Origin: Candidatus Poseidoniaceae archaeon
Lineage (GTDB): Archaea; Thermoplasmatota; Poseidoniia; Poseidoniales; Poseidoniaceae
Reading direction: 5' to 3'
DNA length: 64,000 bases
NCBI GenBank assembly: GCA_964218365.1
Contig: CAXPMI010000031.1
Location: 9,940-73,939 of the forward strand
The notes under the pieces were generated by a model, which saw only the letters and a program-made list of their open reading frames with translations, was not told where the DNA came from and ran no database searches. The position numbers and the translations under genes were made by a program. Each line of letters starts with the position of its first letter. Position 1 is the stretch's first letter. Positions 32,244 through 49,611 of this stretch are shown piece after piece.

Positions 32244-35200
32244 TCATGACGTATTACGACTGTCGTACCTTATTGGTGAGGAATCGCCACGACTTCCATC
32301 TTCTTCGTCGTCCTTTACTTCGAACCAATCTACTAGCCAATCGCCATCGGTGTCCCAATTAAGTGGGTCACTACCCTCTGCGATGTGGTCATCGTCGAGA
32401 TCTAACAGGTACCAACCGAACTCGTGCTCTCCAAGGTCCACAGCAGGAGCACGGTTTGTGCTTCCAGTGTAATACAAATCCCAGTTATCTGTGACGTCTC
32501 CTGAACACAATAATACATCATTTCCTGAGTCCAAAACTAGGAAATCAGTATCCATGTCATCGATGATTAATGCATAACTTAAGTCATCGATGTTTTTCTT
32601 GTTCATGCTGAGATAATTTGTCTGGTCTTCGGTGTTTTCGCCCAATCCTAGAGTGAAAGCTCTAAATTGCCACCATTCTGTAATCGGCGACCCATCCCAT
32701 GTCTCTCCAGAGAGTCTTACAGAGTCTGGGGAGTCTAGATTTGGATTTGCAATCGCAAAGAATTCCATGAAATTAGTGTAAGCGGTATATTCACAAGTTG
32801 CACCACTACAGTCCCAATTTCCATCTTGGTCTGGGTCTTCATTAGCATCTAGAGGATCTCGTGGGTCAAAAGTAGCCCAAGTCCAACCCAATTCAGGACG
32901 AGATAGTGTCCCTGAATCCTGCGATAAAGGTCTACAGGAAACCGTTGAGGAGGTACAGGCTCCACCTGTACCAGGATCTATCCACTGAACTTCAATTTTC
33001 AATCTTGATGAGAAGTTATCATTCGACTCATTCCATCCTTTTTCGTATTCGTACCAATCCGGCAACATATCGCCATCAGTGTCGTTATCCATTGGATTCG
33101 TTCCATACTTGAAGACCTCTCTACCATCAGATAGATTCCAGTCACGGTCGTGAGAGATTACCTGTCCTGAACTGAGTACAGTGTTGAAGGTTACTGCATC
33201 ATAGTCCGAATCGTTTGTATCAGGCCTAGTGCCGTTTAGATACTCCATTAAGTTGGTAAATGGAAGGTCGCCAATTCCGCTTTGGATTATATCGCCTGAT
33301 GCTGTAAATTCTCTGTTTTCCCATACACCCTGAGGAGCAGGAATATCGAAAGAAGTTCGTCCGTACCAACCATCACTATCAGGGTCATAGTTTACGTCAA
33401 ATGGGTTGACTGGATTTGTTGACCAATGATTTTGAGTTGTTGGGTCCGGTAAACCGTAAACAGCATAACAGAATTCCCAACCATCATCGATACCATCTTG
33501 GTCTGAGTCTGAATTAGTTGGGTCTGTAATACCGAACAAGGTTCTGTTAAAGGTGTTTGAATCTGCCGAGTTAATCATTGCCATTCTAGCAGCAGAAATT
33601 GAGTCTTTACCACTAAAGGTATTGAATATTGCACGTCTTGCTTCAGCCTCTGTGTAACCCTCCTCGATATAGGCATCGATAGTATCGTCACCAAATCCAA
33701 TCAATCCTGACCCAGTCGTAAGTCGCTGCGAGAACTTACCGTAAACTCGAGATTCATATTCACGTTTGTTAGTGAACTGTTCCTCAAGAGAAATATTACC
33801 ATCTCTATCACAATCTACCGAGTCCATATCGCTGTCTAACCATTGGTCGGAATCGATCAATGGGTTCATTGACCACCGATTGTTTTCCAAGTCCCACTTT
33901 GTAAACCAATACTCGTAACCATCAATCATTCCATCGTCGTCCGTGTCAGCGATTGTAGGGTCTGTTATTCCCATCAAAGTTGAGATGAAATTATTGGCGA
34001 CACCTGTCGATTGCCACTCTTGGAACTCATCTAGGTGCCTATTTCCTCTTTGCCCCTTGTCGAGAATAATTGTATACACTCTCTGTGCCTTTTGAGTCGG
34101 GTCATTCAAGTCACCATCAATGTGCATTAATGGTGCATCAATCGGGTGGTTTTCTCCATTCTCAGGATTGGTTGTAACGAGCGAAAACTCTTGCGCATCT
34201 GTAAGAGCGTCATCATCTGCGTCGAATGAACCATCACCGGGCACTAGTGGATTTAGAGTCCAAGTCTGTGCTGTGTCATTCCACGCTGTGAACATCAGTT
34301 CCAAACCATCAAGGAATCCATCACCATCGGTATCAGGGTTTGTTGGATCTGTAGTCCATCCTGAGACATTGATTATGTCCTGTCCAACAAATGAGCCAAA
34401 TGATTCAGGATTCGTAATTCCTGCCCACTGTTGAAGGGTATATCCACTTCCAATTGTAGTTACATACCACTGGGGACTAGTTCGATTAGCATTGGTCTCA
34501 GAAAGTTCTGGAGAGATGCTATTGTACTCTTCCCAATTACTCATTCCGTCATCATCGGAGTCATCCCAGCGGTCGTTTGAGTTGAGTGGATCTAAGCTCC
34601 ATTTAGAATCCAGTAATTCCCATCTAGCGTACCAAATCTCCCAACCATCAGGCATTCCATCAGAATCACTGTCTGCATCTGTTGGATCACCTGTCAATAT
34701 ACCATCTCCAAAGTTATCCTCTGGTGCACCCCAATCGGAGATATTCCTGAACAAGTCTGTGGAGAAATTGTTAGGAAGAACTTCGCCATCCAGAGTCATG
34801 TTTCCATCAAACAAATCATCTCGAATATTGTATTCTAACCAATTCACGAATGCCTCGTTTTCTTCTATGATTCCATTGTGATTGATATCATAACCATCAC
34901 CGTCAGGATTTTCAAATGCATCACTTCCATTGAGCGGATTTATTCCAACTCTAGAAACATCCCAGGTACAAGCACCCCGGGCCTCCCAACCATCAGGCAG
35001 ACCATCTCCATCTGAATCTCTATTGTTGGGGTCTGGCTCTGCCCAGAGTTCGACAGCTGCTTCTGTTTCAAAGTGACTTTCAAGTAAATCTCCAATCAGT
35101 CCTGAATCTTTTACCAACGACCACTGATATTCACAAAGATTCGTCAATCCGTCGCCGTCTGCGTCCCATTCCGCATCGTTGGGGTCGCTTGGATCCATTG

Positions 35201-37931
35201 TCCAATTATTTGAACCAGTGAATGACGAACCAATCCATCTCCTGTTCTCTAATTCCCAGCCATCTGGCATTCCATCCCCATCAGAATCAGGGTTGGTTGC
35301 GTCGGTACCAGAATCGATACCCAGAGATTGAAGATATGTGTTGTTTGCAGCAAGACCTGCAGCATCATCACACACGTGTACGAAATCGTATTGGTTAGTG
35401 TAGTGGCAATTCAACGGAGTTACTTCATGAAATAGCCCGAAATATTCCGCTCCATCACCAACTCCGTCACCATCTGTATCAACAACTCTAGGGTCAGTTG
35501 CATTGTAACCATTTGCGGTTGTAGCAGTATATCTGAACTCATCCAAATTCCTCCACAGTCTTTCGTTGATAGGGTCACTATCTAGATTGACACCATCTGC
35601 ATCAGCGTCTAGAAGCGCATCCCATGGATCAGTTGGGTCTAGACCGTACCTAACTTCCCAACCATCCAACATCCCATCTGCATCTGAATCATTTGCCATT
35701 GGATCCATCAGTTCTAGATTCGAGAATTTTCCAGGTCCAATTCCAACAAATATCTTGTCAACTCCTTCTACCTGATAGACTATTGCTGCTGAAATGTAAC
35801 CCGGGATCCACTCCTGGTTTGTCATTCCATAAACTGCAGCATATCCGCCATTTATCGACCACAGACCCCATGCAGAACCGACTATGAGTTCGTTCCCGGT
35901 AGAATAAATCGAGGAAATATCGTTAGCAAAGTCGACTGTTTCACCGTCTATACCTTGATGTTCTAAGTCACCGCCAAAAGTGATTAGTCCAGAAAGAAGG
36001 TCATATCGGTGCAAACCTGAAGGGGTTCCTATCCAAACAACTTGCTCTTGACCGCCTTCTGGCCCGTCACCGAGTAGAGCGTTGACGTGTGCTGGATTTT
36101 TATCAACTTCAGCGCCTATAGTTCTGAGTTCATCAATATCCGTCGCAATTAGAGTTGGTTCTGGAGAGAAGTAGAATCTCCAGTTAGGTGTTGCTGCATC
36201 TCTAGCAGTATTTGTCTCGACAGTCAGTAGTCCTACATCTGTTCCAATGAATAAGGTCAGAGAACCACCGGTTGCATCTACATGTGCGATAGAGGTGACT
36301 GTAGCGTTCCCAGTGTTGAGTGCGTTTGTTATACCAGTTCCAACACTTAGTTGGGAAACAGAAATCTCATTGATTTGGAAAACAGAACCAAATCCAGAGT
36401 ATCCTAGGGCCAGGACGTAATCATCCCCTCCATCTGCAATCAACTGCGCACCAGCTGAATACCTTCCGGGATAGAATTCCCATTGGGTGATTGGCTCGAT
36501 TACTGCCTCGCTATATTCTGCTATCCAAACTCCAGCTTCAGTAACCATAACTACATGATTCTCTAAGATAATCATGTCATGTAAATCGTGCCCTTGGGGT
36601 AATTCGTAATCGGTAGAAACATCGTTATCGAAGTCGATTATTGAAATTCCTAACTTAGTACCCACCCACAATCTTTCACCGTCATCATGGAATCCTCTTA
36701 TGTCATGGTGTATTACTGAGACATCTTCTTCATCAGCTTCTTGTGATAGAAGATACTCTGTGTAAGTACCCTCAGTCGCACTAAGATCTGCAGACCTCAT
36801 TCCTGATTTCACCATGTTTCCATCGTCTAAATGCACAAAGTATTCTTCAAGAGTGGACAATTGTTCACCTAGGGCTAATGCTTCTTCGGAACGTTGTAAA
36901 TCAAGACTTATGATCCCATCTCTGTTGGTATCCCAACCATCGTTATCTAAGTCAATCAACGCGTTGGACCGATTTAGAGGGTCTAGTCCAAAGTGAATTT
37001 CCCAACCATCTGGGATTCCATCCCCGCTAGATGGGAATAAACGACGATGCTTTACACCGTCGTAATTGAATCTGTCACTATCTTCTTCAATTGGGTTGGT
37101 ACCAAGCCAAACATATTCATCGATAACCCCATCCGTGCCATTTCTAGCACAAGCATCAAGGATATTAGTTAGTTTGGTTGAATTAATGTTTTCTGAAATA
37201 AAAGGCCATTCATTCAATGGCGATGCACCTGGATTTGGTGCATGACATCTAAGCCCATCCAGTTCATTTGTCCAATTTGTAGGTGCACCAAAGAGGTATT
37301 CCTCAGGAGAGGTTAGTAACTCACTCACACTCATGAATCCATCTCGGTTTACATCGAATCCGTCGTCATCAGGATCTAAATCAGCATCACTGGCGTTCAA
37401 TGGGTCAAACATTTCACAGACGTATCGCTTTTCTTCGGTATCAAATCCACCGAGTTTTTCGCACATGTGTGCTTCATAGCCATCCGGCATTCCGTCTCCA
37501 TCGGTATCTGCAACTCTTGGGTCGAGGTACCAACGTTCACCAGACTCGTTGATTACTCCTGTAAGGCCTCTAGTAAATCCGGGGTCAACACATTCTGCTG
37601 GATAAGGCCAACAATATTCTTCCGTAGCATTCAGCCCATCGAGGTCTATATCGATGTAAGCGTCAGAAGCATCATCTCTGTCCATCCCTTTCATGACTAC
37701 AGCCCTATTATCTGGAGAAGAGAAGTTTATCCAGTCGCTGAACAAGTTCTCGTGCACATCGGGAATATTGTCTCCGTCTGAATCTGTAGCAGGAGGCCTC
37801 TCACCTTCCGTAAAATTAGGATTAGTAGTACCTACATTGGAGATAGCAGGTAATTGTGAAACAAAGAACAAACCTAGGACAACAAGAATAGTCATGAGAA
37901 GCGTTGATTGAGAGCGTCGCATTGTCATCAC
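32244..37931 (-). CDS. Giant secreted protein (1895 aa) carrying more than 12 thrombospondin-type-3-like calcium-binding repeats (D-x-D-x-D-G-x-P-D-G-[WY]-E) and beta-propeller-like regions.
   Basis: Signal MMTMRRSQSTLLMTILVVLGLFFVSQLPA. Repeated DTDGDGMPDGYE, DSDGDGMPDGWE, DSDGDGLPDGWE, DSDSDGMPDGWE, DTDGDGFLDGLE, DTDDDGMIDGYE, DSDQDGIDDGWE and others. There is no C-terminal TM. Confidence 0.85.
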   Translation of the reverse strand: MMTMRRSQSTLLMTILVVLGLFFVSQLPAISNVGTTNPNFTEGERPPATDSDGDNIPDVHENLFSDWINFSSPDNRAVVMKGMDRDDASDAYIDIDLDGLNATEEYCWPYPAECVDPGFTRGLTGVINESGERWYLDPRVADTDGDGMPDGYEAHMCEKLGGFDTEEKRYVCEMFDPLNASDADLDPDDDGFDVNRDGFMSVSELLTSPEEYLFGAPTNWTNELDGLRCHAPNPGASPLNEWPFISENINSTKLTNILDACARNGTDGVIDEYVWLGTNPIEEDSDRFNYDGVKHRRLFPSSGDGIPDGWEIHFGLDPLNRSNALIDLDNDGWDTNRDGIISLDLQRSEEALALGEQLSTLEEYFVHLDDGNMVKSGMRSADLSATEGTYTEYLLSQEADEEDVSVIHHDIRGFHDDGERLWVGTKLGISIIDFDNDVSTDYELPQGHDLHDMIILENHVVMVTEAGVWIAEYSEAVIEPITQWEFYPGRYSAGAQLIADGGDDYVLALGYSGFGSVFQINEISVSQLSVGTGITNALNTGNATVTSIAHVDATGGSLTLFIGTDVGLLTVETNTARDAATPNWRFYFSPEPTLIATDIDELRTIGAEVDKNPAHVNALLGDGPEGGQEQVVWIGTPSGLHRYDLLSGLITFGGDLEHQGIDGETVDFANDISSIYSTGNELIVGSAWGLWSINGGYAAVYGMTNQEWIPGYISAAIVYQVEGVDKIFVGIGPGKFSNLELMDPMANDSDADGMLDGWEVRYGLDPTDPWDALLDADADGVNLDSDPINERLWRNLDEFRYTATTANGYNATDPRVVDTDGDGVGDGAEYFGLFHEVTPLNCHYTNQYDFVHVCDDAAGLAANNTYLQSLGIDSGTDATNPDSDGDGMPDGWELENRRWIGSSFTGSNNWTMDPSDPNDAEWDADGDGLTNLCEYQWSLVKDSGLIGDLLESHFETEAAVELWAEPDPNNRDSDGDGLPDGWEARGACTWDVSRVGINPLNGSDAFENPDGDGYDINHNGIIEENEAFVNWLEYNIRDDLFDGNMTLDGEVLPNNFSTDLFRNISDWGAPEDNFGDGILTGDPTDADSDSDGMPDGWEIWYARWELLDSKWSLDPLNSNDRWDDSDDDGMSNWEEYNSISPELSETNANRTSPQWYVTTIGSGYTLQQWAGITNPESFGSFVGQDIINVSGWTTDPTNPDTDGDGFLDGLELMFTAWNDTAQTWTLNPLVPGDGSFDADDDALTDAQEFSLVTTNPENGENHPIDAPLMHIDGDLNDPTQKAQRVYTIILDKGQRGNRHLDEFQEWQSTGVANNFISTLMGITDPTIADTDDDGMIDGYEYWFTKWDLENNRWSMNPLIDSDQWLDSDMDSVDCDRDGNISLEEQFTNKREYESRVYGKFSQRLTTGSGLIGFGDDTIDAYIEEGYTEAEARRAIFNTFSGKDSISAARMAMINSADSNTFNRTLFGITDPTNSDSDQDGIDDGWEFCYAVYGLPDPTTQNHWSTNPVNPFDVNYDPDSDGWYGRTSFDIPAPQGVWENREFTASGDIIQSGIGDLPFTNLMEYLNGTRPDTNDSDYDAVTFNTVLSSGQVISHDRDWNLSDGREVFKYGTNPMDNDTDGDMLPDWYEYEKGWNESNDNFSSRLKIEVQWIDPGTGGACTSSTVSCRPLSQDSGTLSRPELGWTWATFDPRDPLDANEDPDQDGNWDCSGATCEYTAYTNFMEFFAIANPNLDSPDSVRLSGETWDGSPITEWWQFRAFTLGLGENTEDQTNYLSMNKKNIDDLSYALIIDDMDTDFLVLDSGNDVLLCSGDVTDNWDLYYTGSTNRAPAVDLGEHEFGWYLLDLDDDHIAEGSDPLNWDTDGDWLVDWFEVKDDEEDGSRGDSSPIRYDSRNTS

Positions 37932-38112: not shown

Positions 38113-38931
38113 ATGTCACTAACATTCACCCACCTTGGGACTGGTAGTCGCGGTAATGCGACTCTAGTAGAGAGTGGTGAGGCAAAAGTACTGATTGACC
38201 AAGGTTTTTCCGGCAAACAACTCGAAACTAGACTTGCGAGGATGGAGATTAAACCGACAGAAATTGATGCGATTGTTCTCACTCACCACCATGGTGACCA
38301 CGGAGGGGGCGCATCAATCGCTCAACGGAGATGGAACATACCGATCTTTTGTAATGACAGGACTGCAACTGCACTAAATCTAGACCTGAAAGGTGTACAA
38401 CTTTTTGAGAGTCTAGAAGCACTCAATTTTGCAGATGACCTAGCACTTTTACCAGTACCAGTACCACATAGCGGTGCAGACAATGTGGCATTCATTGCAA
38501 GTCACAGAGGAGAAAGAGGTGCCGTAATCACAGATTTGGGTTCATGGACTGATGAGTTGGTTAATCATGTTGCAGGATGCCAACACATCTCAATAGAAGC
38601 TAATTATGACCATAACAGGTTGTGGAACGGCCCTTATCCAAGACGACTGAAAGACCGCATCGCAGGAAGAGGGGGCCACCTCTCTAATGACCAAACAGGA
38701 CAATTTCTTTCACACGTGGTAGACAAGAACACAAGATCTCTTGTTCTAACACACTTGTCTGAAAAGAACAACGCCCCCCACATTGCTGAATCTACAGTTC
38801 TATACCACATAGACGAGATTTTTGAGGGAGACATTCAGATTTCTCTACAAGATGGTCCTGAATTCTCTCACCACATCGGTCAAACCGAAAGTGAACGTGT
38901 TGCTCGGCGAGGATTAACACTTCGAGGATAA
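38113..38931 (+). CDS. MBL-fold metallo-hydrolase.
   Basis: LTHHHGDHGGG (HxHxDH motif), 272 aa. Confidence 0.85.
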   Translation: MSLTFTHLGTGSRGNATLVESGEAKVLIDQGFSGKQLETRLARMEIKPTEIDAIVLTHHHGDHGGGASIAQRRWNIPIFCNDRTATALNLDLKGVQLFESLEALNFADDLALLPVPVPHSGADNVAFIASHRGERGAVITDLGSWTDELVNHVAGCQHISIEANYDHNRLWNGPYPRRLKDRIAGRGGHLSNDQTGQFLSHVVDKNTRSLVLTHLSEKNNAPHIAESTVLYHIDEIFEGDIQISLQDGPEFSHHIGQTESERVARRGLTLRG

Positions 38932-38946
38932 GCCCTGTAAGGGCTT
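38929..38946 (+). terminator. Hairpin AAGCCC-TGTA-GGGCTT overlapping the MBL stop codon.
   Basis: GGGCTC-family hairpin seen directly. Confidence 0.4.
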
Positions 38947-38991
38947 GGTTTTGGTGAAACCCTAAGAGGGTGGTTCACTCTCTCCTGCACA

Positions 38992-40029
38992 ATGAGGTCA
39001 CAACGCAAGTCCGGAAGTGACCTCGCCGTCAGTGAAGTCATTGGTGTCGTGATGCTGCTTGCGATGGTAATCACAATGATGGGAGGAGTGTTTGTATTTC
39101 TTACCCCATATGTGAATGATTTTCAAGATAATACCGCATGGTCAAACGCAAATGGGATTGCGGAAAGGCTAGACGGAAGAATCGATGTCGTTGCAGGAGC
39201 AAGTGCAGACACCGGACTTAGAACTACAATTCCCTTGACTATGAGCTCGATTTCTCCTATAATAAGTGCAGAAGTATGGACTGTTTCTGCTGATTTGACT
39301 GCGGGAGAGACTGTCACGGTCAATTACATCAATCAAACAACATTCAGTATACTATCGGAAAATGAAACAGCAGACCGTGCGGTAATATGGACAGAAGGTG
39401 GGGAAGTCGAAATATCATTCAATGAAACATACGAAGAAATTTTGATTAAACACAATTTGAGTGTTGCAGACATTTACATTGTAACAGTGTTCGATGGAGA
39501 GAATGAGATACACAAGCATGCAAAGATACCAATTTCAGGATTAATGGTAAAGACCAAAGTTCAGACTGGTGAGCATTCGATTGGACTCCTGAATGATGCT
39601 CGTTACGACAAATTCACTGATGAAACCTGGAGTATAACTTCGTCTCCTGACATGAATATTGAAGAGTTATTTGATGGCACAATGAGAGCTAGTTTGTCTC
39701 TGAGAGACGTAGACACAGTTGGTGCAATTCCAGACGGTAGAAACGCAATCTTCGATATCCGTTCAGAAGGTCCGATTACCCTGTTTAGTGGTGATGCATG
39801 GAATTTCAGATTTACATTTGACTCATCACTAGGACCAACTGTCGCCCCACAGATGACAGAGGGATGGTTAACCGACTACAACCTTCACAGAGCGTCGAAT
39901 ACTCTAGACCAACATAGAGGAATCAGTCCTTGGTTGAGGGCAAGTGGAATCGATGGTATGACAATCGACCACGGCAATTCTGTAATCGATCTTGAAATCG
40001 AATTGCAATTGGTGGAGGTTAGCAGATGA
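38992..40029 (+). CDS. Archaeal type IV pilin-like protein (class III signal peptide), 345 aa.
   Basis: N-terminus MRSQRKSGSDLAVSEVIGVVMLLAMVITMMGGVFVFL. It has a charged n-region, a small residue, then VSE (Glu at +3) and a long hydrophobic helix, as in archaeal prepilins/DUF1628-type pilins. Confidence 0.65.
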   Translation: MRSQRKSGSDLAVSEVIGVVMLLAMVITMMGGVFVFLTPYVNDFQDNTAWSNANGIAERLDGRIDVVAGASADTGLRTTIPLTMSSISPIISAEVWTVSADLTAGETVTVNYINQTTFSILSENETADRAVIWTEGGEVEISFNETYEEILIKHNLSVADIYIVTVFDGENEIHKHAKIPISGLMVKTKVQTGEHSIGLLNDARYDKFTDETWSITSSPDMNIEELFDGTMRASLSLRDVDTVGAIPDGRNAIFDIRSEGPITLFSGDAWNFRFTFDSSLGPTVAPQMTEGWLTDYNLHRASNTLDQHRGISPWLRASGIDGMTIDHGNSVIDLEIELQLVEVSR

Positions 40030-42074
40030 TGCAAAATAACCTCCGCAGGGACGAGGAAGCAGTTAGCGCTGCTGTAGCCACCGTTCTACTCTTTGGAGGA
40101 GTAATTTCAATTATTGGAATTATGCTACTTTCCTTGATGCCAGTTATACAAGAATTAGAAGGTTCTCTCAAGAGAAATGATATGCAAGCCCAAATGGAGA
40201 TAATGGCTCACGAAGTAACATTATTGTCTGAATCCGGATTACCTGGCGACTCTAGTCAAGTCCAACTTATTCCGGTTGATGGTGAATTACGATGGGATAG
40301 ACTCAGAGGAGGAATGTGGTATTCTGCATCTTGGTATGAAGGTGATACTTTCAGAATCCAAGGGGCTCTAGACTTGGACCGAAATATCGACGTAAGGCAT
40401 GCCGAAAGCAATGTACAGGCGATTTGCTATGAAGATATGAGACTAGGTCCAGACAGACCATTCATATTCTCCCCAAATAATCAAACCGATACAATACTAG
40501 TAACACCTAAACATGGTTTGACAATACCCCTCGGTCCTGTTGAAATTGAACACGCAGGAATAGAGCACTCTCTTTCGATAGGAGAGGTTATGAGTTTAGA
40601 TTCAAACCACCAAATCAAATCAAGTCATGATTTGGTTGGCTTACAGATAAGAGGGGATTCGGGAGTTGCACTTATGCCACCTTCCAAGGCAAATCCCTCA
40701 ACTGGTAAGGGGCAACATTGGGCAATTCCTCTACCAGTGGGAGAAACTACAATCGAAGTCTTCGCAGACGATGACATCCTCGTTCAATGGCAGACTCTAA
40801 CTGAATCTGGGCAAGAAGCAATACCCCAAACCACAGCTGTTAGAATAGCAAACTCATGGACAAAAACATTCAATCTATCAGAGATTAGTTTAGTGGAGAT
40901 AGTTACTGACGTCGATGCTCATCTGATTATTTCTCATGGCAATTCTGGTAAAACCTCACTGTTGGGAGAAGAGGGGAATTATCTCTCTAAGCACTTCATA
41001 GCGCCTTCGCAATCTGGGAATTTATCGTTCTCTAATCCGAGTCAAAATGCTGCAACAATTACATGGAAAAATGGCGGCATATCTGTACCTGCCAACCAAA
41101 CCATAGAAGTTGAGTGGCCTCCATCTAATATCGATAGTGCTGCGATCTTAGAAAGTAGCGAGAATGTTCTCGTTCAGTGGAAACTAAATGACAAAGGAAT
41201 GACATTCTTACCTGCAACCGACACAGGTCAAATCACTGGACTAGATTTCATTGAAGATAATTCACAGACGATTATCAACCATTCTTCTGAATATGGTGAC
41301 TATCAATCAAAATTGGCAAAAGATGGGAATTCGGGAATTCTTGCGCTAGAGGATGATGGAGCTATGCGCTGTGTCGCAATAGACCAGACTGCATCCGGAT
41401 GGATTTCAACTACCCTGCCGTGGAAATCAATGAATGGTATACCCGAAGGGCAGATCATCACTGCTTGGAGAAATGGAGATCACCCCGCAAGTATTGAGAT
41501 AACTTTGATTGGGACAGAAGGAGATGCAACTCACGCTAACTTAGCAACAGCATGGGCATTCCATATATCGAGATTAACATACGAATTTGATACCTCGATT
41601 ACAGGCCTTGAAGTTGCATGGTCTGCCGGTGCAATTGTTACAAATCATCCCGAGTTAGATCCTACAATATTAGTTGGACCAACAGACAGACAGGGCCCAG
41701 GGCCAAGGTTCAGTGCAACAATACCTTCGATGCACCCTACTCAAACATCAGTTACTGGTAGCGGGATAATGAACCTTGATATCGAACTATCAATGAGAGA
41801 AAGTCTTGCCTCTACAACAGCCTATGATGTGAGGAGAGGGTGGGTAGGTCCGTATGGAGATGCGGTTGCTTCTTGGGCAAGTACAAGCCTAGAGACTTCC
41901 GAAGACTGGATAGTTAATCCCGGAAGAATTGACTTGCTTACAGACTATGTTGGTTGGGTCCCTGTTCCTACAGTTGGACCTAGTGAAGCCGTATGGCATA
42001 CAGCAGGTCAGCCAATACAGTTCAATCTGCAAATTAGCAGCCTAGATGTTGAAATTTCGGAGGCGGGGTCATGA
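40026..42074 (+). CDS. Archaeal type IV pilin-like protein, large (682 aa).
   Basis: N-terminus MMQNNLRRDEEAVSAAVATVLLFGGVISIIGIMLL. Its start overlaps the upstream stop (ATGA), which suggests an operon. Confidence 0.65.
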   Translation: MMQNNLRRDEEAVSAAVATVLLFGGVISIIGIMLLSLMPVIQELEGSLKRNDMQAQMEIMAHEVTLLSESGLPGDSSQVQLIPVDGELRWDRLRGGMWYSASWYEGDTFRIQGALDLDRNIDVRHAESNVQAICYEDMRLGPDRPFIFSPNNQTDTILVTPKHGLTIPLGPVEIEHAGIEHSLSIGEVMSLDSNHQIKSSHDLVGLQIRGDSGVALMPPSKANPSTGKGQHWAIPLPVGETTIEVFADDDILVQWQTLTESGQEAIPQTTAVRIANSWTKTFNLSEISLVEIVTDVDAHLIISHGNSGKTSLLGEEGNYLSKHFIAPSQSGNLSFSNPSQNAATITWKNGGISVPANQTIEVEWPPSNIDSAAILESSENVLVQWKLNDKGMTFLPATDTGQITGLDFIEDNSQTIINHSSEYGDYQSKLAKDGNSGILALEDDGAMRCVAIDQTASGWISTTLPWKSMNGIPEGQIITAWRNGDHPASIEITLIGTEGDATHANLATAWAFHISRLTYEFDTSITGLEVAWSAGAIVTNHPELDPTILVGPTDRQGPGPRFSATIPSMHPTQTSVTGSGIMNLDIELSMRESLASTTAYDVRRGWVGPYGDAVASWASTSLETSEDWIVNPGRIDLLTDYVGWVPVPTVGPSEAVWHTAGQPIQFNLQISSLDVEISEAGS

Positions 42075-42541
42075 CAAATAGATTGGTCGATGACGAATCT
42101 GGAGCTAGCACTGAACTTGGCTACATTTTCACATTCATGCTCGGAGTATTGTTCCTCTCAATGTTTAGTGTCTGGGCGTTTGGCTTAGAAACGTCAACTA
42201 GGGAGAACTGGAATAGAACTGCTGTAGATGTTAACATGGCAGATATTGCTGCTGCGGTTGAAAGGGCCGATATGGCAAGCAGAGAAGACTCTAGTGTGAG
42301 TTACGCAGAAGTAGTGACATGGAGATTAACCGAAGCAGACGAGACCGACTTTGTTCTCACCTTGGATGACACTGGACTATCACTCGATCATAGCGAGAAT
42401 GAACTGGACAGAGAAGTTTCGATATCTGGAACGGGATATGGTACATATGATGGAAGAATCAATCTTTCAGGGACTGCAGAGATTTGGGTCGTTTACCACG
42501 AAGGTGTGACCTATCTCTCAACAACTAGACCAGATTTCTGA
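42071..42541 (+). CDS. Archaeal type IV pilin-like protein, small (156 aa).
   Basis: N-terminus MTNRLVDDESGASTELGYIFTFMLGVLFLSMF (DDxxGxSTE plus hydrophobic). Its start overlaps the upstream stop. Confidence 0.6.
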   Translation: MTNRLVDDESGASTELGYIFTFMLGVLFLSMFSVWAFGLETSTRENWNRTAVDVNMADIAAAVERADMASREDSSVSYAEVVTWRLTEADETDFVLTLDDTGLSLDHSENELDREVSISGTGYGTYDGRINLSGTAEIWVVYHEGVTYLSTTRPDF

Positions 42542-45073
42542 TTATCTGCCCATTACAGCGGTGTGTACCATCATCTGTACTTCCCGCATTCTTGTCTGAG
42601 CGCCTAATTCTCGGAAGACCGATAATGCCCTCTGAAGATATTCCATCCTCCGTTGTCTATCGGGGGCAACTCCGCCTAATCTTGCTAATAATTCGCCGAT
42701 TTGCATGCGCAAATCGTTTGCTTCAGAGATGACCAGTGCTTCTCGATATCTTTCCAAAGCTTCCTCGATTCTACCACTGTCCTGGAGAACCTCTCCTAAC
42801 AAAATCGAAACTTCCACCAATGCTAGCGGATCTCCTGCTTCTCCCATTGTGGATAGTGCATCTGTGTAATGATGTAAAGCCAGGTCTGAATCCCCAGTCT
42901 TTGCATAATATCTTCCAAGTACAGCTCTTGCTCTTGCGTGCAATATCGCATCATCACTCGATTCAGACCTCTCATAGGAAGACAATGCATGGTCTCTTGC
43001 TCTATCACTCTCACCTAAGTCGAGTAACGCTCTTGCTAAAACGATCTGGGCAGGAATTAGTTCTGTGGAATCATTCCCCGACAAAATACTCTCTACTTCA
43101 CCATAAGCCTCCAGTGCCTTAGCTTTGTCACCGTTTCTACGCAGGATATATCCCATGTTGTTATAGGAGCGAGCAGCACCTACTGCATCGCCCATAGAGA
43201 TGAATAATTCCAGAGCCTTTCTGTGCATTCCAAGGCTTCCATCTGAATCTCCTCGCTTCAAAGCAATGTCTGCTAAATTCGAAACAATGTCTGCAATAAC
43301 GTCGTCTAAACCGGCAGCTTCAGCTGGTGGTTTTGCTTGGTTGAATGCTTCTTCTGCCTCATCGAAACGACCGAGTAGAGCTAATACCTCTCCCCTGAGT
43401 CTATCTACCCTACATGCACTATCTGCACCTACTGATTTTGTATCGATAGACTCTAGTAAACCCAATAATTCAATGTGACCTTCCTTGATTAAGTCTCTAC
43501 CTTGTTCCACTACTAATTTTGTGGCATCTTCGTGCCTTGAAGAAGAAATTAGGTGGTATATTAACTCAAGAGCAATCTGACTTGATGTGGCTTGTTTAGT
43601 GTACCAGGCAACCGCTTTGTTGTGAAGATCTTCTTTGGATTGTTTGTCCAGACTTTGTAGAAGGAATTCCCGAATTAGGTCGTGAACATCATAAGTTCCA
43701 GAATCGGCATTGCGAGCCAGGCCAGATTCTACTAGGGAATCTAATTCATCAGTATGTAGACCTTGTTCCGTTAGAGCTTCTAACTCGATAGGTTCACGGA
43801 ATACAGATAGAGCACCAAGCAAGCGTTTTTGCTCTCCTGAGAGCTTAGAGAAAATCTCGATATTGACGTAATTCTCTAGAGATTCGTGGAATGCACCTGC
43901 TGATGCCCCGCGGTTAATCAACTCCAAGACTAGAGGGTGACCACGGCTCAAGGAGTGTATGTAGAGTAATTTTTCTTGGTCCAAGTCATCAAAGGCAGAG
44001 AGAAGAGACCTAGTTGATTCTTGGTCCAAGCCTTCTAATGGGAGAACCAGTGAAACTATCCTTCCATCAGCGTCTTTGAGGGGAACAACCTCTTTGAAAG
44101 AGCGAGAGAATATTACTAGTCCAACATCACCTTCACACTCGACAAGACCTCTAGATAATGCTTGAATTGTTTGATGTAGAGTCTTATCACTTACTTTGTG
44201 GTAATCATCAATCACGATTAGAGCAGGTGTGTTAGCAAGAGAATCAACAATAATTCTTGCTGCATCAGCAGACTTCGGAACTGGAGTAGCAGATATGTAA
44301 TCGGCCAACATTGAATCCCCGATATTTGATAGCCAGTCAGCGATGCCCTCCAAGAAAGCTCGACTTCCTTCCCAGTCTTGACATCGATGATACATCAAGT
44401 TCCTTCGATGCATGAATGATTCAATCACTTTTGCTGCCATGGAGGTTTTTCCGATACCTGCAATCCCTGGTACCATCAAAGTTGTAGACCTAGCCTCAAG
44501 AAGATTAACCATATTTTCTAATTCGGTAGACCGGCCATAAAAGTGCCTTAACCTCGGTAGGTCACCAAGGCTAGTAACAAGTTGTTTCTCAACATGCTTT
44601 GAGAGATCTCTTTCAACTAGGTCTGCAGACAGTGAGCGGACATCCAAGACTCCGTTGTCATCTAGGTATCGTATTACATCAACTGGCCTCATAGTAAATG
44701 GCAACTTATCTTGGATTTCTCCAAGCGTAGATGCGATGGTGTTTCCACCAGGTAGAATTGCTCTGAGTTGGAATTCCCTAAGGTTCTTCCATGTCTCATC
44801 AGCCAATTTCATTCCAGATTCTGTTAAGAAGTAGGCCTTCCTCTTTCTGCTAACCCCTTGAACGTGAGCTTGCCTCTCGATTAGAAGTCCTTGATCCTTC
44901 AAACCAGCAATTGCTCTAGGGACGTTGGAGCGAGCGATTGCAACTGCATTTGCGATACCCATTTGTGATAGAGCAAATGGTACCTCGACTGAACTCATGA
45001 AGTCCGAGAAGTCGGAAAGATGTAGAAGAATCCTCTCTTGAACACCCGGCTTTGGTCTAGTCGCCATACTCAA
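42542..45073 (-). CDS. STAND-class signal-transduction NTPase with an N-terminal winged-helix DNA-binding domain, an NB-ARC-type P-loop ATPase and C-terminal TPR repeats (AfsR/MalT-like architecture).
   Basis: The N-terminus has a wH-like segment (GIANAVAIARSNVPRAIAGLKDQGLL). FYGRSTELENMVNLL is the (F/V)GRExEL hallmark. Walker A is VPGIAGIGKTSMA and Walker B is ALIVIDDYH. There are several TPR-like repeats in the C-terminal 350 aa. Confidence 0.8.
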   Translation of the reverse strand: MSMATRPKPGVQERILLHLSDFSDFMSSVEVPFALSQMGIANAVAIARSNVPRAIAGLKDQGLLIERQAHVQGVSRKRKAYFLTESGMKLADETWKNLREFQLRAILPGGNTIASTLGEIQDKLPFTMRPVDVIRYLDDNGVLDVRSLSADLVERDLSKHVEKQLVTSLGDLPRLRHFYGRSTELENMVNLLEARSTTLMVPGIAGIGKTSMAAKVIESFMHRRNLMYHRCQDWEGSRAFLEGIADWLSNIGDSMLADYISATPVPKSADAARIIVDSLANTPALIVIDDYHKVSDKTLHQTIQALSRGLVECEGDVGLVIFSRSFKEVVPLKDADGRIVSLVLPLEGLDQESTRSLLSAFDDLDQEKLLYIHSLSRGHPLVLELINRGASAGAFHESLENYVNIEIFSKLSGEQKRLLGALSVFREPIELEALTEQGLHTDELDSLVESGLARNADSGTYDVHDLIREFLLQSLDKQSKEDLHNKAVAWYTKQATSSQIALELIYHLISSSRHEDATKLVVEQGRDLIKEGHIELLGLLESIDTKSVGADSACRVDRLRGEVLALLGRFDEAEEAFNQAKPPAEAAGLDDVIADIVSNLADIALKRGDSDGSLGMHRKALELFISMGDAVGAARSYNNMGYILRRNGDKAKALEAYGEVESILSGNDSTELIPAQIVLARALLDLGESDRARDHALSSYERSESSDDAILHARARAVLGRYYAKTGDSDLALHHYTDALSTMGEAGDPLALVEVSILLGEVLQDSGRIEEALERYREALVISEANDLRMQIGELLARLGGVAPDRQRRMEYLQRALSVFRELGAQTRMREVQMMVHTAVMGR

Positions 45074-45120
45074 TCATTCCCCTATTCCTCTTAGAGTGTT
45101 GTGTATTTCCGTGTTAGAAA

Positions 45121-48100
45121 TTACTGCTGAGGAGGCCTGTAGTTTGGATCTGCAACCCACTGGTTGGTTTGGGCATCCCAAATCCAACCTGGATGCTGAG
45201 GCTGAGCAGCAGGTACAGGAGCAGGAGCAGGTGTTAATTCACCTGCAGAAGCTGCTGCTTGTTCTGCGGCCCTTGCTTTTGCCCATGCATACGGGTCTTC
45301 CTCTTTTTGCATCTCAGCCAATGCGGCTTCATCATCTTCAAACTCTTCCTCAAACTCAAGGAAGAAGAAAGCGCCAACAGCAAGGAGAATCGCAATGACT
45401 ACCACCGCAATAACAATCCAAACCCAAGAGGAAACACCATCAGTTCCTGTTTCTCCTTTCTTTAGAGTGATAGAGTTACCGTCGTCTTTTCCAATGAATT
45501 GACCATCTTGTTCAAAGTATATCTCAAAACTACCATCTCTATCAAGAGCAGAGGAGCTAATATCCATATTCCAAAGGCCGTCTTCGCCAACAACGGTGTC
45601 ATTCAGTTTTATGTCACCCTTCACAAGTCTTGCTGTGACAACAGAATTTGGTAATCCTGTACCCTTGAACTCAGCTGAGTCCCCAAACTTAACTGCACCT
45701 TCATCCGTTCTCTCAGCCGTGAACTCGACACCGCGTACAACGAAGTTAACTTGGTAAGAATACGCTACAGAATCGAAGGCATCTCTTGCTTCGAACATTA
45801 CTCCTTGCATAGACCACTCAGAGATTTCGCTTGAGGTTTGATACATTGAATCCATTGGATTGTAAATCGCTTTACCATCAGGCGTGATTCTGATATGATA
45901 TGCATAATCATCATCGATTGCAGTTGAAGGGTCATCACGGACATCGAAAACCATGTGACTGGATTGTGGTCCTACTCCATCTGAATCATTGAAATAATCC
46001 AACAAATTGATTTCCACACCTTCGCCACACTTATCGAATGCACTGGACTTTTCATCACAGAAGATTGTGATAGTATCAACCCAGCCGGTTGGATTGAATG
46101 TAGGTGCCATGTTGTCTGCATCCGCAGGGTTATCAATTACGATACGTACTGTTTCCATCAATGAGTAGTCCACACCATCATAAGCCCTAACTTGAACTTC
46201 ATATTGCTGGTCGTGAATCAGATTGCTAGTATCCCAATATGTGAACCATGCACCATTAGGCTGGAACGAGGTAATTGGGTTTGGACCATTGTTTAACTCG
46301 ATTCCACTAGCAAGGTCAATAATTGTGATTTCAACACGTGTTACTTGACCATCGTTATCTCGTGCCACACCACTGATAATTGTCTCATCTGATGCTCTTA
46401 CACTCTCCATTGGAAGTGGTTCACTGACTTGGACAATTGGAATACGGTTATCATTATCGATTGTAATAGTGATTACTTCTGGATCACATACATCTACAAC
46501 TTCATGACAATAATTTGAGTCGCTTGCCCAAACTGTGAATGTGTAGTCACCACTTGGCAGTGACGAGAAGTTCCATGTATCGGCCCAAGCTGCTGCACCA
46601 CCTGCATTTGCAGGGTAGTTTGCAGAATAGTTGTTAGGTCCTTGAACACTAAACCAGATGTCTCTGATATCGCTACCCTGTACACCTTGGTAGTCATCAG
46701 AAGCTGTTCCTGTGAAGAGAACTTCCTGTCCGTCGTGAGTAGATCCATCCAATGGAGTATCAAGATTGATTGTTGGAGGATTGATATTAAGCTTGAATAC
46801 TCGAGTGCTTACAATTGATTCTTCCAGCCCATCGTAGGACCTGACTCTGAATGTAACATCCTCTTCGAAGTGGTTTGCCATATCCCAATTGAAACTCCAA
46901 GTTTTGAATGGCCAGTTTGCCATGGTAACTTCACCGTTAGCGCCTGATGTGTCTGTTGCTAGATACCAATCTTGGCTTCCATGAGGTTGGATCTCCACCC
47001 TCTTGATGTCACCAAATTGCTTCAGCCATGAATCATAGTCATTGAAGTACGGACCAGATTGTCCATCATGTGAAGATCCAGTTAGGGAAATAGTTCTTGC
47101 AAATGAGGTGCCGTCGTTTTGGTCTACACTCACAGATGGTGCAATGTTAACAAGATTGATGACTTCATCAACCATGCCGGTTAGAGTGAAATCATGTGTA
47201 GATGTTCCCTTGCTAAACTTCTTTGCTTCAACTGAATATGTTGGCAATTCACGGTTTCCGGATTGACAGTCTGGATCTTGGCCATCAGCTAGTGTGTCAC
47301 CGTCATTGTCGATACCGTCGCTACAGGAATCTTCACCTTGGTCTGTTGCTTGATGATTCCAGTTTCTATCGATGTGGAAGTTTGATGGAAGTGTAACCCA
47401 CGGCGTGTAACCGTAAGGGTCGGTAGTCATGTTGTACAACGGCTTTCCATTTGCATCTTTGATTGTTACAAGAGCGTCGGAAACTTGTGAGTTGTCTGCT
47501 TTGACTTGATACCTTACGAGTTCTCCTTGCTCAACTTGGACACCCCATGCAGTGTTTTGATTTTGGATGTGGATCTTCGACCTATCGAAGTTCTGAACAT
47601 CTGAGTAAGTGAATGTCGTAGCATTCTCATTTAGTTCCATAGCAAGAGGCATGAACTTTGGAGGCCATACACCAGTAAGCGGAACTTGTAGGCACACTGA
47701 AGAGTCCCAAGGACACTCTCTGTCATCCCAAGTTAGCATGACTGGATACATCTGATTGCCACCTGGGTCTGGCATGAACTCGCTCTGTACAGCAACACGT
47801 GATTCTGTAACGTTGTAAATCTGCGATGCATTGGAGTATGAGTTACCAGAGAAGTAAGCAATAGAACCGTATTTGTTTCCATAATTATCATCATACAGCG
47901 AAATATTTGCTGCGAAACCACCAACTTCTATGTTGTTATTTTGAGCGTTGACAATGCCGCCCTTTATCCTGAATCCATCCCCTACGTTATTTGATACCGT
48001 ATTGTCCATGAATGTAGCAGAGGCCATGTAGACGTGGAATGCGGGACAAGGGAAATCTCCTCCATACATTTCAACGGAGTTACATGTTCCTGTATTGTTA

Positions 48101-49416
48101 GAGATTATGTTATTTGCAAAATACAGGCGGGCTTTGCTTGGAGATGGGACGTTCCATCCCTGATCCTTGTGGTGGTATTCACCTATCAGTACTGGTTCTT
48201 TTGCTGTGTTGAGAATTGTATTGTTTTCTGCACTCACATCAGATTCACCATAAATCCACAGACCGTTCCATCCACCGATTGGGCCGATTGTGTTGCCATT
48301 GGCTGTTACGAAAGAAGAGCGGATACCAAATCCTGAACCTTCTGCAGAACCTGAAATAGTATTTCTTTCAGCAAGAACAATTGCACCATCGTACGCAGTA
48401 ATTCCTGCTCCGTCAGTAGGAGTGATTACGTTGTCTGAAATTACGAATGTGTAATTTTGGCCATTAGCAGACAAATGGGAGTTTGTATCGATAGCGTTAC
48501 ACTTTGTGGTAACTGTAGAGTTTGTTAGATAACCACTGCTCGAGCGCAAAAACGCTCCGTAAGAATTCTGTGTGACTGAAATAGTATCCATTCTAACGAA
48601 AGAGTTCTCAAGGTAAATTGCTGAACGACCTCCACCTTGGGCTCCACAATCAGTCTCTTCCCCTGTGAACGCAGAATTCAGTACTTGCATGACCACAAGA
48701 CCTGCACCTGCACCGTATGCCTGTATTGCAGCGCCGTGGTAACCTTCCTCATCAATTCCAACCTCGAAGGTTCCTCCATCTAAGGTAGGCGATGCACCGT
48801 TGATTGCCAACACGTTTGTTGTATTGATATTCCTGAAAGTTGGATTGTTTACACTCAAACTTGCACCGTCGAAGACCATTGCTCCGTACTTGATGGATCC
48901 TTGACCATCAATATCGATAGGGATACCGTATGCACCGTCTAGTGTTACGTGGTTCAGACGGGTCAGTGACTGGTCGATTGTAGAATCAAGGTATATTCCA
49001 GAACCACAAGCCATGTCTGGATTGAAAATACCTGTTACATAACATCTGCCTGTTTGGTTAGGAGCTGGTGCTGCCGGTGCGCCCCAAATGAAACGGATAG
49101 GAGAACCTGTACTTGCTTGTGATGCACCACAAGAACTGTCACCTGCACAAATCGAACCTTGGATGTTAATGTTCTTGTCTGCAGGTATGTTGATTGTAGT
49201 TCCAGCATTGATGATTAATTTCGCACCACCAGCGACCAATAGGTCACCGTCCATGTTCATGACTCCGGTCCAGGTTTCTGTACCGGTAATTGTTCCTGAT
49301 GATGTTTCATTCACCGCCATTGCTGACGGAGCGGTTGATACCATAGTTACAAACAGGGAAACTAGGAATAAACTCACTAAACCTACACTCTTACTTTTTT
49401 GGACGTTTACTGACAT
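45121..49416 (-). CDS. Giant secreted parallel beta-helix protein (about 1430 aa) with a Ca-binding-like DNDGD/DPDC motif, Ig-like domains, a C-proximal TM anchor and a Pro-rich cytoplasmic tail.
   Basis: Signal MSVNVQKSKSVGLVSLFLVSLFVTMVSTAPSAMA. PbH1-like repeats (NNIISNNTG..., DNTVSNNVGDGF..., NNNIEVGG). CSDGIDNDGDTLADGQDPDC. TM WVWIVIAVVVIAILLAVGAFFFL, then a tail ...PAPAPVPAAQPQHPGWIWDAQTNQWVADPNY. The track ORF starts at 49461; the signal-peptide Met maps to 49416. Confidence 0.85.
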   Translation of the reverse strand: MSVNVQKSKSVGLVSLFLVSLFVTMVSTAPSAMAVNETSSGTITGTETWTGVMNMDGDLLVAGGAKLIINAGTTINIPADKNINIQGSICAGDSSCGASQASTGSPIRFIWGAPAAPAPNQTGRCYVTGIFNPDMACGSGIYLDSTIDQSLTRLNHVTLDGAYGIPIDIDGQGSIKYGAMVFDGASLSVNNPTFRNINTTNVLAINGASPTLDGGTFEVGIDEEGYHGAAIQAYGAGAGLVVMQVLNSAFTGEETDCGAQGGGRSAIYLENSFVRMDTISVTQNSYGAFLRSSSGYLTNSTVTTKCNAIDTNSHLSANGQNYTFVISDNVITPTDGAGITAYDGAIVLAERNTISGSAEGSGFGIRSSFVTANGNTIGPIGGWNGLWIYGESDVSAENNTILNTAKEPVLIGEYHHKDQGWNVPSPSKARLYFANNIISNNTGTCNSVEMYGGDFPCPAFHVYMASATFMDNTVSNNVGDGFRIKGGIVNAQNNNIEVGGFAANISLYDDNYGNKYGSIAYFSGNSYSNASQIYNVTESRVAVQSEFMPDPGGNQMYPVMLTWDDRECPWDSSVCLQVPLTGVWPPKFMPLAMELNENATTFTYSDVQNFDRSKIHIQNQNTAWGVQVEQGELVRYQVKADNSQVSDALVTIKDANGKPLYNMTTDPYGYTPWVTLPSNFHIDRNWNHQATDQGEDSCSDGIDNDGDTLADGQDPDCQSGNRELPTYSVEAKKFSKGTSTHDFTLTGMVDEVINLVNIAPSVSVDQNDGTSFARTISLTGSSHDGQSGPYFNDYDSWLKQFGDIKRVEIQPHGSQDWYLATDTSGANGEVTMANWPFKTWSFNWDMANHFEEDVTFRVRSYDGLEESIVSTRVFKLNINPPTINLDTPLDGSTHDGQEVLFTGTASDDYQGVQGSDIRDIWFSVQGPNNYSANYPANAGGAAAWADTWNFSSLPSGDYTFTVWASDSNYCHEVVDVCDPEVITITIDNDNRIPIVQVSEPLPMESVRASDETIISGVARDNDGQVTRVEITIIDLASGIELNNGPNPITSFQPNGAWFTYWDTSNLIHDQQYEVQVRAYDGVDYSLMETVRIVIDNPADADNMAPTFNPTGWVDTITIFCDEKSSAFDKCGEGVEINLLDYFNDSDGVGPQSSHMVFDVRDDPSTAIDDDYAYHIRITPDGKAIYNPMDSMYQTSSEISEWSMQGVMFEARDAFDSVAYSYQVNFVVRGVEFTAERTDEGAVKFGDSAEFKGTGLPNSVVTARLVKGDIKLNDTVVGEDGLWNMDISSSALDRDGSFEIYFEQDGQFIGKDDGNSITLKKGETGTDGVSSWVWIVIAVVVIAILLAVGAFFFLEFEEEFEDDEAALAEMQKEEDPYAWAKARAAEQAAASAGELTPAPAPVPAAQPQHPGWIWDAQTNQWVADPNYRPPQQ

Positions 49417-49523
49417 AATACACCCTCGGCATGTTGTCCAAATACTGGACCGCCTTAACACATTGGGATAGATTTCAATTGAAAAGTATCAATTATCAAG
49501 GAAAATATCATCTTTTTTGCCCC

Positions 49524-49532
49524 TATAAATTA
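49524..49532 (-). promoter_or_regulatory. Candidate TATA box (minus-strand TTTATAGGG) in a 195-bp AT-rich region upstream of the beta-helix giant gene.
   Basis: Seen by eye. About 106 nt upstream of the proposed ATG. Confidence 0.25.
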
Positions 49533-49611
49533 ACAAAATATCAATTACTGGAAAGAATATCATATGTTTATAGATGACTCATTACCGTCTCTGTGCACCG
49601 TTTAGAAGATA

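Follow-up and report, generated by a model that had tools for sequence, protein, structure and literature searches.

What can three overlapping genes for pilin-like proteins build in an archaeon when no assembly machinery is encoded beside them, and does the STAND NTPase gene that meets them stop to stop take part in it? The question is raised by a 64,000-nucleotide stretch of DNA from Candidatus Poseidoniaceae archaeon (GenBank assembly GCA_964218365.1, contig CAXPMI010000031.1, positions 9,940 to 73,939 of the forward strand), hereafter the window, in which the genes pil1, pil2 and pil3 converge on the STAND gene. The window is a piece of the chromosome of a Marine Group II (MGII) archaeon (Ca. 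Poseidoniales, Poseidoniaceae), and the genes around the block discussed here are archaeal housekeeping genes. The explanation that fits the locus best as a whole, and which we consider moderately probable, is that a translationally coupled pilin-like operon would supply a heteromeric minor-pilin complex assembled in trans, the STAND gene being a separate unit.

Gene pil1 (38992–40029, + strand) encodes a 345-aa type-IV-pilin-like protein, pil2 (40026–42074, +) a pilin-like protein of 682 aa and pil3 (42071–42541, +) one of 156 aa. Both the pil1/pil2 and the pil2/pil3 junctions are ATGA overlaps in the window sequence. The pil3 stop codon (tga, 42539–42541) abuts that of the STAND gene (tta, TAA on the − strand, 42542–42544) with zero intergenic bases. 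The three open reading frames (ORFs), the overlaps and the stop-to-stop contact had all been listed in an earlier note made from the letters alone, and the sequence bears out each of them. The pil genes are real, since complete orthologues of each were recovered from 139–150 other loci.

The N-termini were compared by our own motif tabulation over the distinct N-termini of orthologues from these 139–150 loci. In the window they read SDLA↓VSEVIGVVMLLAMV for pil1 (leader MRSQRKSGSDLA), DEEA↓VSAAVATVLLFGGV for pil2 and ESGA↓STELGYIFTFMLGV for pil3, where the arrow marks the predicted cleavage site. The residue at −1 of pil1 is Ala in 71 and Gly in 21 of the 92 distinct N-termini (Ala or Gly, 100%), and Val +1 (97%), Ser +2, Gly +6 and Pro +27 (100% each) follow, with a consensus of [DE]-R/x-[AG]↓V-S-E-[VI]-[LI]-G-V. 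For pil2, Ala occupies −1 in 93/98 N-termini, Gly in 4/98 and Ser in 1/98, and the consensus is [DE]-[ED]-A↓V-S-A-A-V-A-T-V-L-L-F. All 103 distinct N-termini of pil3 have Ala at −1 and Ala or Gly at −2, and eight positions (T2, E3, G5, Y6, T9, F10, L12 and G13) of its motif [AG]-A↓[AS]-T-E-[LI]-G-Y-x-F-T-F-L-L-G are invariant in 100% of them. The N-termini of pil3 all have Glu +3 (100%), as do 97% of those of pil1, and pil2 lacks it; Pro +27 is invariant in pil2 as well as in pil1. In all three proteins the leader is followed by about 25 uncharged hydrophobic residues, reaching to about +26. The tabulation thus returns the class III-type pattern of a short charged leader, Gly or Ala at −1 and at least 20 uncharged hydrophobic residues. 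The charged residues expected before the cleavage site are present in the general pattern but not at −2 of pil1 in the window strain, where Leu stands in place of Arg, the most frequent residue in the orthologues (40/92 distinct N-termini).

A crude class III-type scan of all window ORFs of at least 60 aa gave pil1 and pil2 as clear matches and placed pil3 slightly under our own hydrophobicity threshold. The remaining matches were an ordinary-looking Sec signal (the giant protein at 32244–37931) or doubtful short ORFs.

Comparison with Pfam assigned pil1 to DUF7289 above the cut-off (30.4 bits against 27) and to Pilin_N just below it (23.7 bits against 25.2). When pil1 orthologues were scanned singly, 31/38 matched DUF7289 and 15/38 matched Pilin_N. 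The pil2 protein reached 21.6 bits with DUF7289 (cut-off 27) in its first 80 residues only, and 40/58 of its orthologues matched this family at E < 0.01. The pil3 protein scored 27.5 bits with DUF7266 (cut-off 27.6) over residues 8–142, corresponding to profile positions 2–133 of 145, and 11/29 orthologues matched at E < 0.01. The family profiles of pil1 and pil2 are homologous over the N-terminal ~127 columns (hhalign 93%, E = 3e-7); the single sequences show no similarity by BLASTP. The comparison of the pil3 and pil1 profiles was not significant, and no kinship of pil3 to pil1 or pil2 was detectable beyond the motif. A tblastn comparison of pil1 and pil3 with plasmids, where annotated haloarchaeal relatives might be met, gave no match. 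As judged from these sequence features, the three proteins are archaeal type-IV-pilin-like proteins, each with a class III-type N-terminus whose cleavage is predicted. The pilin-like character proposed in the earlier note is thereby supported by the DUF7289, Pilin_N and DUF7266 matches and by a leader kept across the order.

A structural model was obtained for pil2 with AlphaFold2 from an alignment of 30 sequences of database proteins (pLDDT 88.9, pTM 0.87). In this model one long, 60-residue N-terminal helix (residues 10–70) is followed by beta strands up to residue 679, which form a large multi-domain all-beta head. An earlier model with 14 close homologues reached pLDDT 49 and was not used; its Foldseek outcome agreed with that of the later one. 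The predicted fold is a pilin 'lollipop' with an unusually large head of about 610 aa. Because the Foldseek comparison with solved structures gave TM-scores of about 0.1, that is, no relative, the head as modelled is a chain of generic beta-sandwich modules in an arrangement without a solved relative. The pil2 family is narrow. It has 110 representatives among 1.84 billion proteins, the full-length ones being 29–49% identical to pil2 of the window, and a profile of distant pil2 relatives returned 7 proteins in a second protein search. The suggestion that the 682-aa protein could be a tip adhesin is compatible with a pilin-type helix carrying a very large beta head; the adhesin role is plausible but not shown, and pil2 is a candidate distal or adhesive subunit.

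The pilin operon is a transcription unit of its own with its own predicted promoter, since a BRE/TATA-like box lies downstream of a terminator-like hairpin. The hairpin AGCCCT-gta-AGGGCT with a T-rich run (38931–38952, +) is located directly 3′ of the stop codon of an MBL-fold hydrolase gene (38113–38931, +), and separates this gene from the operon. It is present in most clades, where its sequence changes and its pairing is kept (e.g., AGCCCTgtaAGGGCT, CACCCCCCtatGGGGGGTG and ATCGCCtacgGCGAT), and was not seen in loci L150–L153 and L156. Together with the T-rich run it is probably a terminator or an RNA element. The promoter element GGTGAAA-cc-CTAAGA (38953–38967, +) lies 24 nt 5′ of the pil1 ATG and is kept in most clades as ...GAA-n-ATAAGA or TAAATGA. 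The same [CT]TAAG[AG] box, with a BRE-like GAA element before it, lies 21–27 nt 5′ of the starts of pil1, the STAND gene and the ribosomal S15 gene (upstream of 16693, −). The box also lies at this distance 5′ of an upstream in-frame ATG of giantB (32244–37931, −). GGTGAAA-cc-CTAAGA would thus be the ordinary BRE/TATA element of this genome, and leaderless or very-short-leader mRNAs are suggested to be its norm; such an mRNA is predicted for the pil genes because the box is only 24 nt from the ATG. Nothing else was found upstream of pil1 beyond this ordinary promoter and the hairpin, neither a further motif nor a TGATA-type repeat cluster of the kind described below.

Two CCCT-N3-AGGG palindromes 5′ of pil1 had been considered as an operator and were dropped after the cross-locus comparison. 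The first is the terminator-like hairpin, with its changing sequence, and the second is the BRE/TATA-like box, which is palindromic by accident in this strain.

The pil1/pil2 overlap is −4 or −1 nt in 133/136 loci and the pil2/pil3 overlap in 115/139, and these kept stop/start overlaps argue for coupled, roughly equimolar translation. The coupling, the very unequal sizes of the products and the presence of Glu +3 in pil1 and pil3 but not in pil2 favour a stoichiometric complex over a major pilin. In the proposed mechanism, the leaders would be removed by a prepilin peptidase encoded elsewhere, and the hydrophobic N-terminal helices would hold the trio together in a heteromeric 'minor-pilin' complex of roughly 1:1:1 stoichiometry. 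The pil2 protein, which is the largest and the only one without the near-invariant Glu +3, would with its big beta-sandwich head take the distal, possibly adhesive, position. In this it parallels GspK in the bacterial GspI-J-K tip, by analogy and not by homology. The complex may cap or prime a filament or form a short stalk. Its assembly would rely on an ATPase/platform pair acting in trans, which in this family could be the archaellum ArlI/ArlJ set reported for all MGIIa.

No Pfam match to T2SSE/FlaI, T2SSF/FlaJ or an A24-type peptidase was obtained at relaxed thresholds in the window ORFs of at least 100 aa and the ORF at the right end, the short frame at the left end lying outside the scan. 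The earlier statement that the window has no assembly ATPase, platform or prepilin peptidase is therefore correct. It does not make the locus remarkable, as had been thought, because archaeal pilins are routinely encoded far from their assembly genes, in haloarchaea and Thermoplasmatales alike. The genes for haloarchaeal PilA pilins are found in trans of pilB/pilC (PMC4858521), and Cuniculiplasma, a member of the same phylum (Thermoplasmatota), has ~500 kb between its pilin genes and the machinery operon (PMC12448462). For all MGIIa, and for only some MGIIb, an archaellum operon with FlaHIJ has been reported, most MGIIb being described as lacking it (PMC6461757, PMC6336850).

The distribution of the trio was studied in two sets of loci. 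When one genome per GTDB species was scanned by pattern, 261 species proved to have a pil2 relative, and gene order was read in the best 80. All but one of these 80 carry archaeal names, mostly Poseidoniales or Poseidoniaceae; one record is titled Verrucomicrobiales. Each of the 80 loci, as far as its contig reaches, has the order giant A, giant B (with TSP3 repeats), MBL, pil1, pil2, pil3, the convergent STAND, giantC, S8 protease and the 3179-aa AglB/STT3 fusion. Another ~50 long loci, from metagenomes scanned with the most distant pil2 relatives as seeds, have the same order, pil2 being 28–34% identical (full-length matches); nothing more than the outermost giant A escaped detection, in four loci. 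These ~50 loci are probably MGIIb, an assignment suggested by their divergence only. Their identities are 50–58% for STAND, 30–36% for pil1 and 32–44% for pil3. Altogether, every locus of sufficient length shows the ~22-kb block in colinear order, even where pil2 identity has dropped to 28%; the trio is intact in about 130 of these loci.

Several points weigh against a minor-pilin complex assembled in trans. The structural model covers pil2 alone of the trio, pil1, pil3 and the complex being outside it. The Pfam score of pil2 is under the cut-off and confined to the N-terminus, that of pil3 is 0.1 bit under its cut-off, and pil1 of the window strain has Leu at −2. To our knowledge, archaeal pilins follow no established rule that requires a conserved Glu close to the mature N-terminus. 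The search for the peptidase, ATPase and platform covered the 64-kb window only. Furthermore, no Poseidoniales locus seen lacks the trio, whereas most MGIIb are reported to have no archaellum genes, so that in these lineages a dedicated or different machinery, or none, must serve it.

The last point bears on the best of the alternatives, in which the trio would make up the full subunit set of a dedicated adhesive pilus, pil3 being the major, polymerising pilin, pil1 the minor pilin and pil2 the tip adhesin, with PilB and PilC encoded elsewhere and unreported in surveys of MGII. The universality of the trio, including loci far from MGIIa, argues for a machine other than the archaellum. In addition, the size of pil3 is that of a major archaeal pilin, its DUF7266 match extends along the whole protein, and its N-terminal segment is invariant, as packing in a filament core would need. 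However, a subunit needed in large excess would be poorly served by the last position in a coupled operon, and PilB/PilC are not reported for MGII in PMC6461757 and PMC6336850, which does not exclude them. We regard a dedicated pilus as possible, if tentative.

A second alternative dispenses with filaments and assembly ATPase. The trio would be pilin-derived proteins that keep their N-terminal helix, with or without cleavage, as a membrane anchor and form a fixed scaffold that organises or tethers giant glycoproteins of the same block. This would suit its conservation across the order in one block with giant proteins, secreted or anchored, an S8 protease and an AglB/STT3 fusion, the lack of machinery nearby, its apparent presence in lineages reported without archaella and the unusual size of the pil2 head, about 610 aa. 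Yet the strict Gly/Ala at −1 and the conserved positions +1 to +6 fit a peptidase site and the packing of helices in a fibre, and are needless for a plain signal anchor; block-wide synteny alone is no proof of a functional link. An anchored scaffold is rather unlikely. The minor-pilin complex remains the preferred explanation, and the trio raises the question of which peptidase, ATPase and platform serve the lineages reported without an archaellum.

The other part of the initial question concerns the convergent gene. The longest STAND ORF spans 42542–45073 (−), with a possible TTG start at 45073. The most likely start is the ATG two codons further in, at 45067 (gene 42542–45067, −; 841 aa, as in public gene calls), which leaves a gap of 53 bp to the upstream gene giantC. 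The convergent ORF described earlier is thus present, and its length of 843 aa and gap of 47 bp are better replaced by these values. A TATA-like CTAAGA box (45089–45094, −) lies 21 nt 5′ of the ATG and would serve the gene as a promoter of its own in the window lineage.

The STAND protein consists of a probable winged helix-turn-helix (wHTH), the STAND NTPase domain and a TPR region. It features the motifs FYGR at residue 176, Walker A GIAGIGKT at 201 and Walker B LIVIDD at 283. The NOD (residues 170–495) matches PDB entry 6mfv, the TPR-sensor STAND protein PH0952 (phmmer E = 2e-25). The protein also matches the AAA_16, nSTAND6 and nSTAND1 families, all under their cut-offs. The C-terminal residues ~550–830 match TPR_12 in 4 stretches (E = 6e-26) and TPR_2, TPR_1 and TPR_4 above cut-offs. 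Weak full-length similarity to the AfsR and MalT NCBIfam models was also found. The N-terminal ~95 aa are the most conserved part, with 49 positions invariant across clades. Residues 12–90 match HTH_Crp_2 in 22/22 orthologues (best E = 1.6e-5) and PadR in 21/22, all under gathering scores, and a profile of the N-terminus found no match among PDB sequences; a DNA-binding winged helix is likely but not proven. The convergent gene is therefore a STAND NTPase with TPRs, as the earlier note held, with a probable N-terminal winged helix. The label NB-ARC used there is not supported: this family is missing from the 25 best Pfam families listed (down to E = 0.045) of the 32 matching at E ≤ 1, and the protein is matched best by AAA_16, nSTAND6/nSTAND1 and the solved PH0952.

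A comparison with PADLOC models gave noise-level scores only, the best being 25.5 bits with a generic TPR model, followed by PDC-S27 with 18.9 bits, and no nuclease or other effector domain is present besides the probable wHTH. The gene is the best-conserved one of the block, single-copy and at a fixed position in about 130 loci, with identities of 50–98% across the order. It is much more likely to be a regulator than a defence gene, the two roles that the note had considered, and is a probable signal-sensing transcription regulator belonging to the single-copy core of the order.

Whether this regulator acts on the pilins is another matter. The pil3/STAND contact is kept at −4 to +16 nt in 107/108 loci, the genes overlapping by 34 nt in the remaining one. 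No run of at least four T was found within 400 nt past either convergent stop (42141–42941, both strands), and the pilin and STAND transcripts probably overlap in antisense at their 3′ ends for this reason. The idea that the wHTH-STAND-TPR protein directly regulates the pilin operon on a signal sensed by its TPR domain draws on both observations, and on a wHTH so nearly invariant that its DNA target should be conserved. The contact is ancient, yet so is everything else in the block, so synteny cannot single out a link between pilins and STAND. The region 5′ of pil1 contains only the hairpin and the ordinary BRE/TATA-like box, without a TGATA cluster; the sole conspicuous repeat array is 5′ of giantC, with which the STAND gene is in tandem and, in several clades, probably co-transcribed. 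Direct control is thus unlikely. The adjacency, which the note had found noteworthy, does not show a link specific to the pilins: the two genes meet because the ~22-kb cell-surface block, syntenic throughout the order, is tightly packed.

The STAND gene is always adjacent to giantC and on the same strand. Its own CTAAGA box is kept in loci with at least 74% STAND identity and is absent where, as in several clades, the STAND start follows the giantC stop by only 9–23 nt. The earlier note had asked whether STAND is co-transcribed with this upstream gene. The answer probably depends on the lineage, as that of the window has a separate STAND box and co-transcription is likely in the clades with 9–23 nt gaps. 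The STAND gene is thus a transcription unit separate from the pilins, coupled genomically to giantC and not demonstrably to the pilin genes.

Gene giantC (45121–49416, −; 1431 aa in the public call) encodes a giant type I membrane surface protein whose C-terminus (45121–45350, −) comprises a transmembrane helix and a conserved cytoplasmic tail of ~75 aa. The tail reads DPYAWAK ... HPGWIWD-x5-WVADPNY in the window, and the motifs DPYAWAK and HPGW[IL]WD-x5-WVPDPNY are kept in all but one clade. Five same-orientation TGATA[TAC][TC] repeats (49485–49562, −) are located upstream of the giantC promoter, 35–130 nt 5′ of its TTAAGG TATA-like box. This is the only cluster of five in the window, against a background of 0.22 sites per 120 bp, and most clades have 2–7 copies, often spaced by ~20 nt, in the corresponding position. 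The repeats are a candidate transcription-factor binding array. The clade L150–L153 has neither the array nor the second tail motif, yet its wHTH is identical, which gives no support to the array being the STAND operator. A signalling pair of the giantC tail and the STAND TPR domain is an attractive speculation. Extended to the whole ~22-kb block, it would make a single surface module, in which the giantC tail reports contact to the STAND TPR domain and STAND switches surface genes from the TGATA array, possibly including the pilin operon, while the trio serves as a universal, archaellum-independent attachment stalk of Marine Group II; we consider this quite improbable. Least credible of all, and very improbable, is a defence island with STAND as an antiviral (Avs-like) sensor, for although STAND NTPases with TPR sensors include antiphage proteins and the MBL-fold protein weakly matches LmuA, DRT-MBL and Avs1a models, PADLOC gives noise only, the N-terminus is a probable wHTH in place of an effector domain, and a single-copy gene at a fixed position with 50–98% identity runs directly counter to the patchy occurrence of defence genes.

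The wider region 26789–60460 (~34 kb) contains almost solely cell-surface genes, and the ~22 kb that other loci show of this region is colinear across Poseidoniales. Besides the trio and the 1431-aa anchored protein, it encodes two giant secreted proteins (one of 1785 aa, the other of 1895 aa and with TSP3/thrombospondin-type repeats), an S8 subtilase and a protein of 3179 aa in which an STT3/AglB oligosaccharyltransferase domain is fused to CarboxypepD_reg repeats. The MBL-fold hydrolase is kept at the same position across the order with 47–99% identity, and has weak matches only, to RNase Z/beta-CASP, Apyc1 and defence-associated MBL models. Downstream of the giant genes, a 252-aa ORF (25582–26340, −) has a weak Matrixin/Met-zincin signature (E = 0.003) and may encode a small secreted metalloprotease of the surface block.

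The archaea of Marine Group II, which have never been cultured, rank with the most abundant archaea of the plankton. What is inferred of their envelope and of structures for attachment comes only from genes for 'flagella', thrombospondin-like proteins and flotillin, and a literature search returned nothing relevant on DUF7289 or DUF7266, on pili in MGII/Poseidoniales or on the trio in MGII. The trio provides three concrete candidate surface or attachment proteins kept in every locus examined, and a further lead comes from the neighbouring pair of highly conserved regulator and giant membrane protein.

Among known systems, the trio resembles the predicted minor pilins of haloarchaea and other euryarchaea in the Pilin_N superfamily (PF07790, DUF7289, DUF7266; arCOG02911-type of Makarova et al. 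2016, PMC4858521) in its class III-type leader, hydrophobic helix and all-beta head. It shares with the arCOG02911-type proteins (~250–550 aa) the variable size, the paralogues often side by side and the frequent location away from ATPase/TadC genes. It differs from the superfamily in that the similarity of pil1 and pil2 to it is confined to the N-terminal ~70–130 residues, the heads being Poseidoniales-specific, and from the arCOG02911-type range in the larger size of pil2 (682–770 aa), the correspondence of DUF7289/DUF7266 to arCOGs being putative. The bacterial GspI-GspJ-GspK (type II secretion system) and PilVWX priming complexes offer an analogy, as they too comprise co-encoded pilin-like proteins of unequal size, the largest without Glu, in presumed equimolar amounts; no sequence or fold similarity to them was found, and no secretion or pilus machine was identified here. 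CdiPA/CdiPB of Cuniculiplasma divulgatum are encoded in the same phylum and likewise far (~500 kb) from the machinery operon, and the poorly expressed second pilin of Cuniculiplasma has been interpreted as a minor pilin (PMC12448462). CdiP and Sulfolobus AapA/AapB are small pilins with solved filaments and a known ATPase and platform, whereas the proteins of the trio are much larger and known from genes alone. The STAND protein resembles PH0952 of Pyrococcus horikoshii (6mfv) and the MalT/AfsR regulators in having a P-loop NOD followed by a TPR sensor, and the latter also in its DNA-binding effector, which is here putative. Unlike in MalT/AfsR, this effector would be an N-terminal MarR/PadR/Crp-like winged helix (sub-cut-off) and not a C-terminal LuxR HTH or an N-terminal SARP. 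STAND thus belongs to the known TPR-sensor STAND regulators, with an unusual, probable winged helix at the N-terminus. The trio represents Poseidoniales-specific families with novel heads inside the known archaeal type-IV-pilin-like class, and extends this class of proteins rather than revealing a new kind of system.

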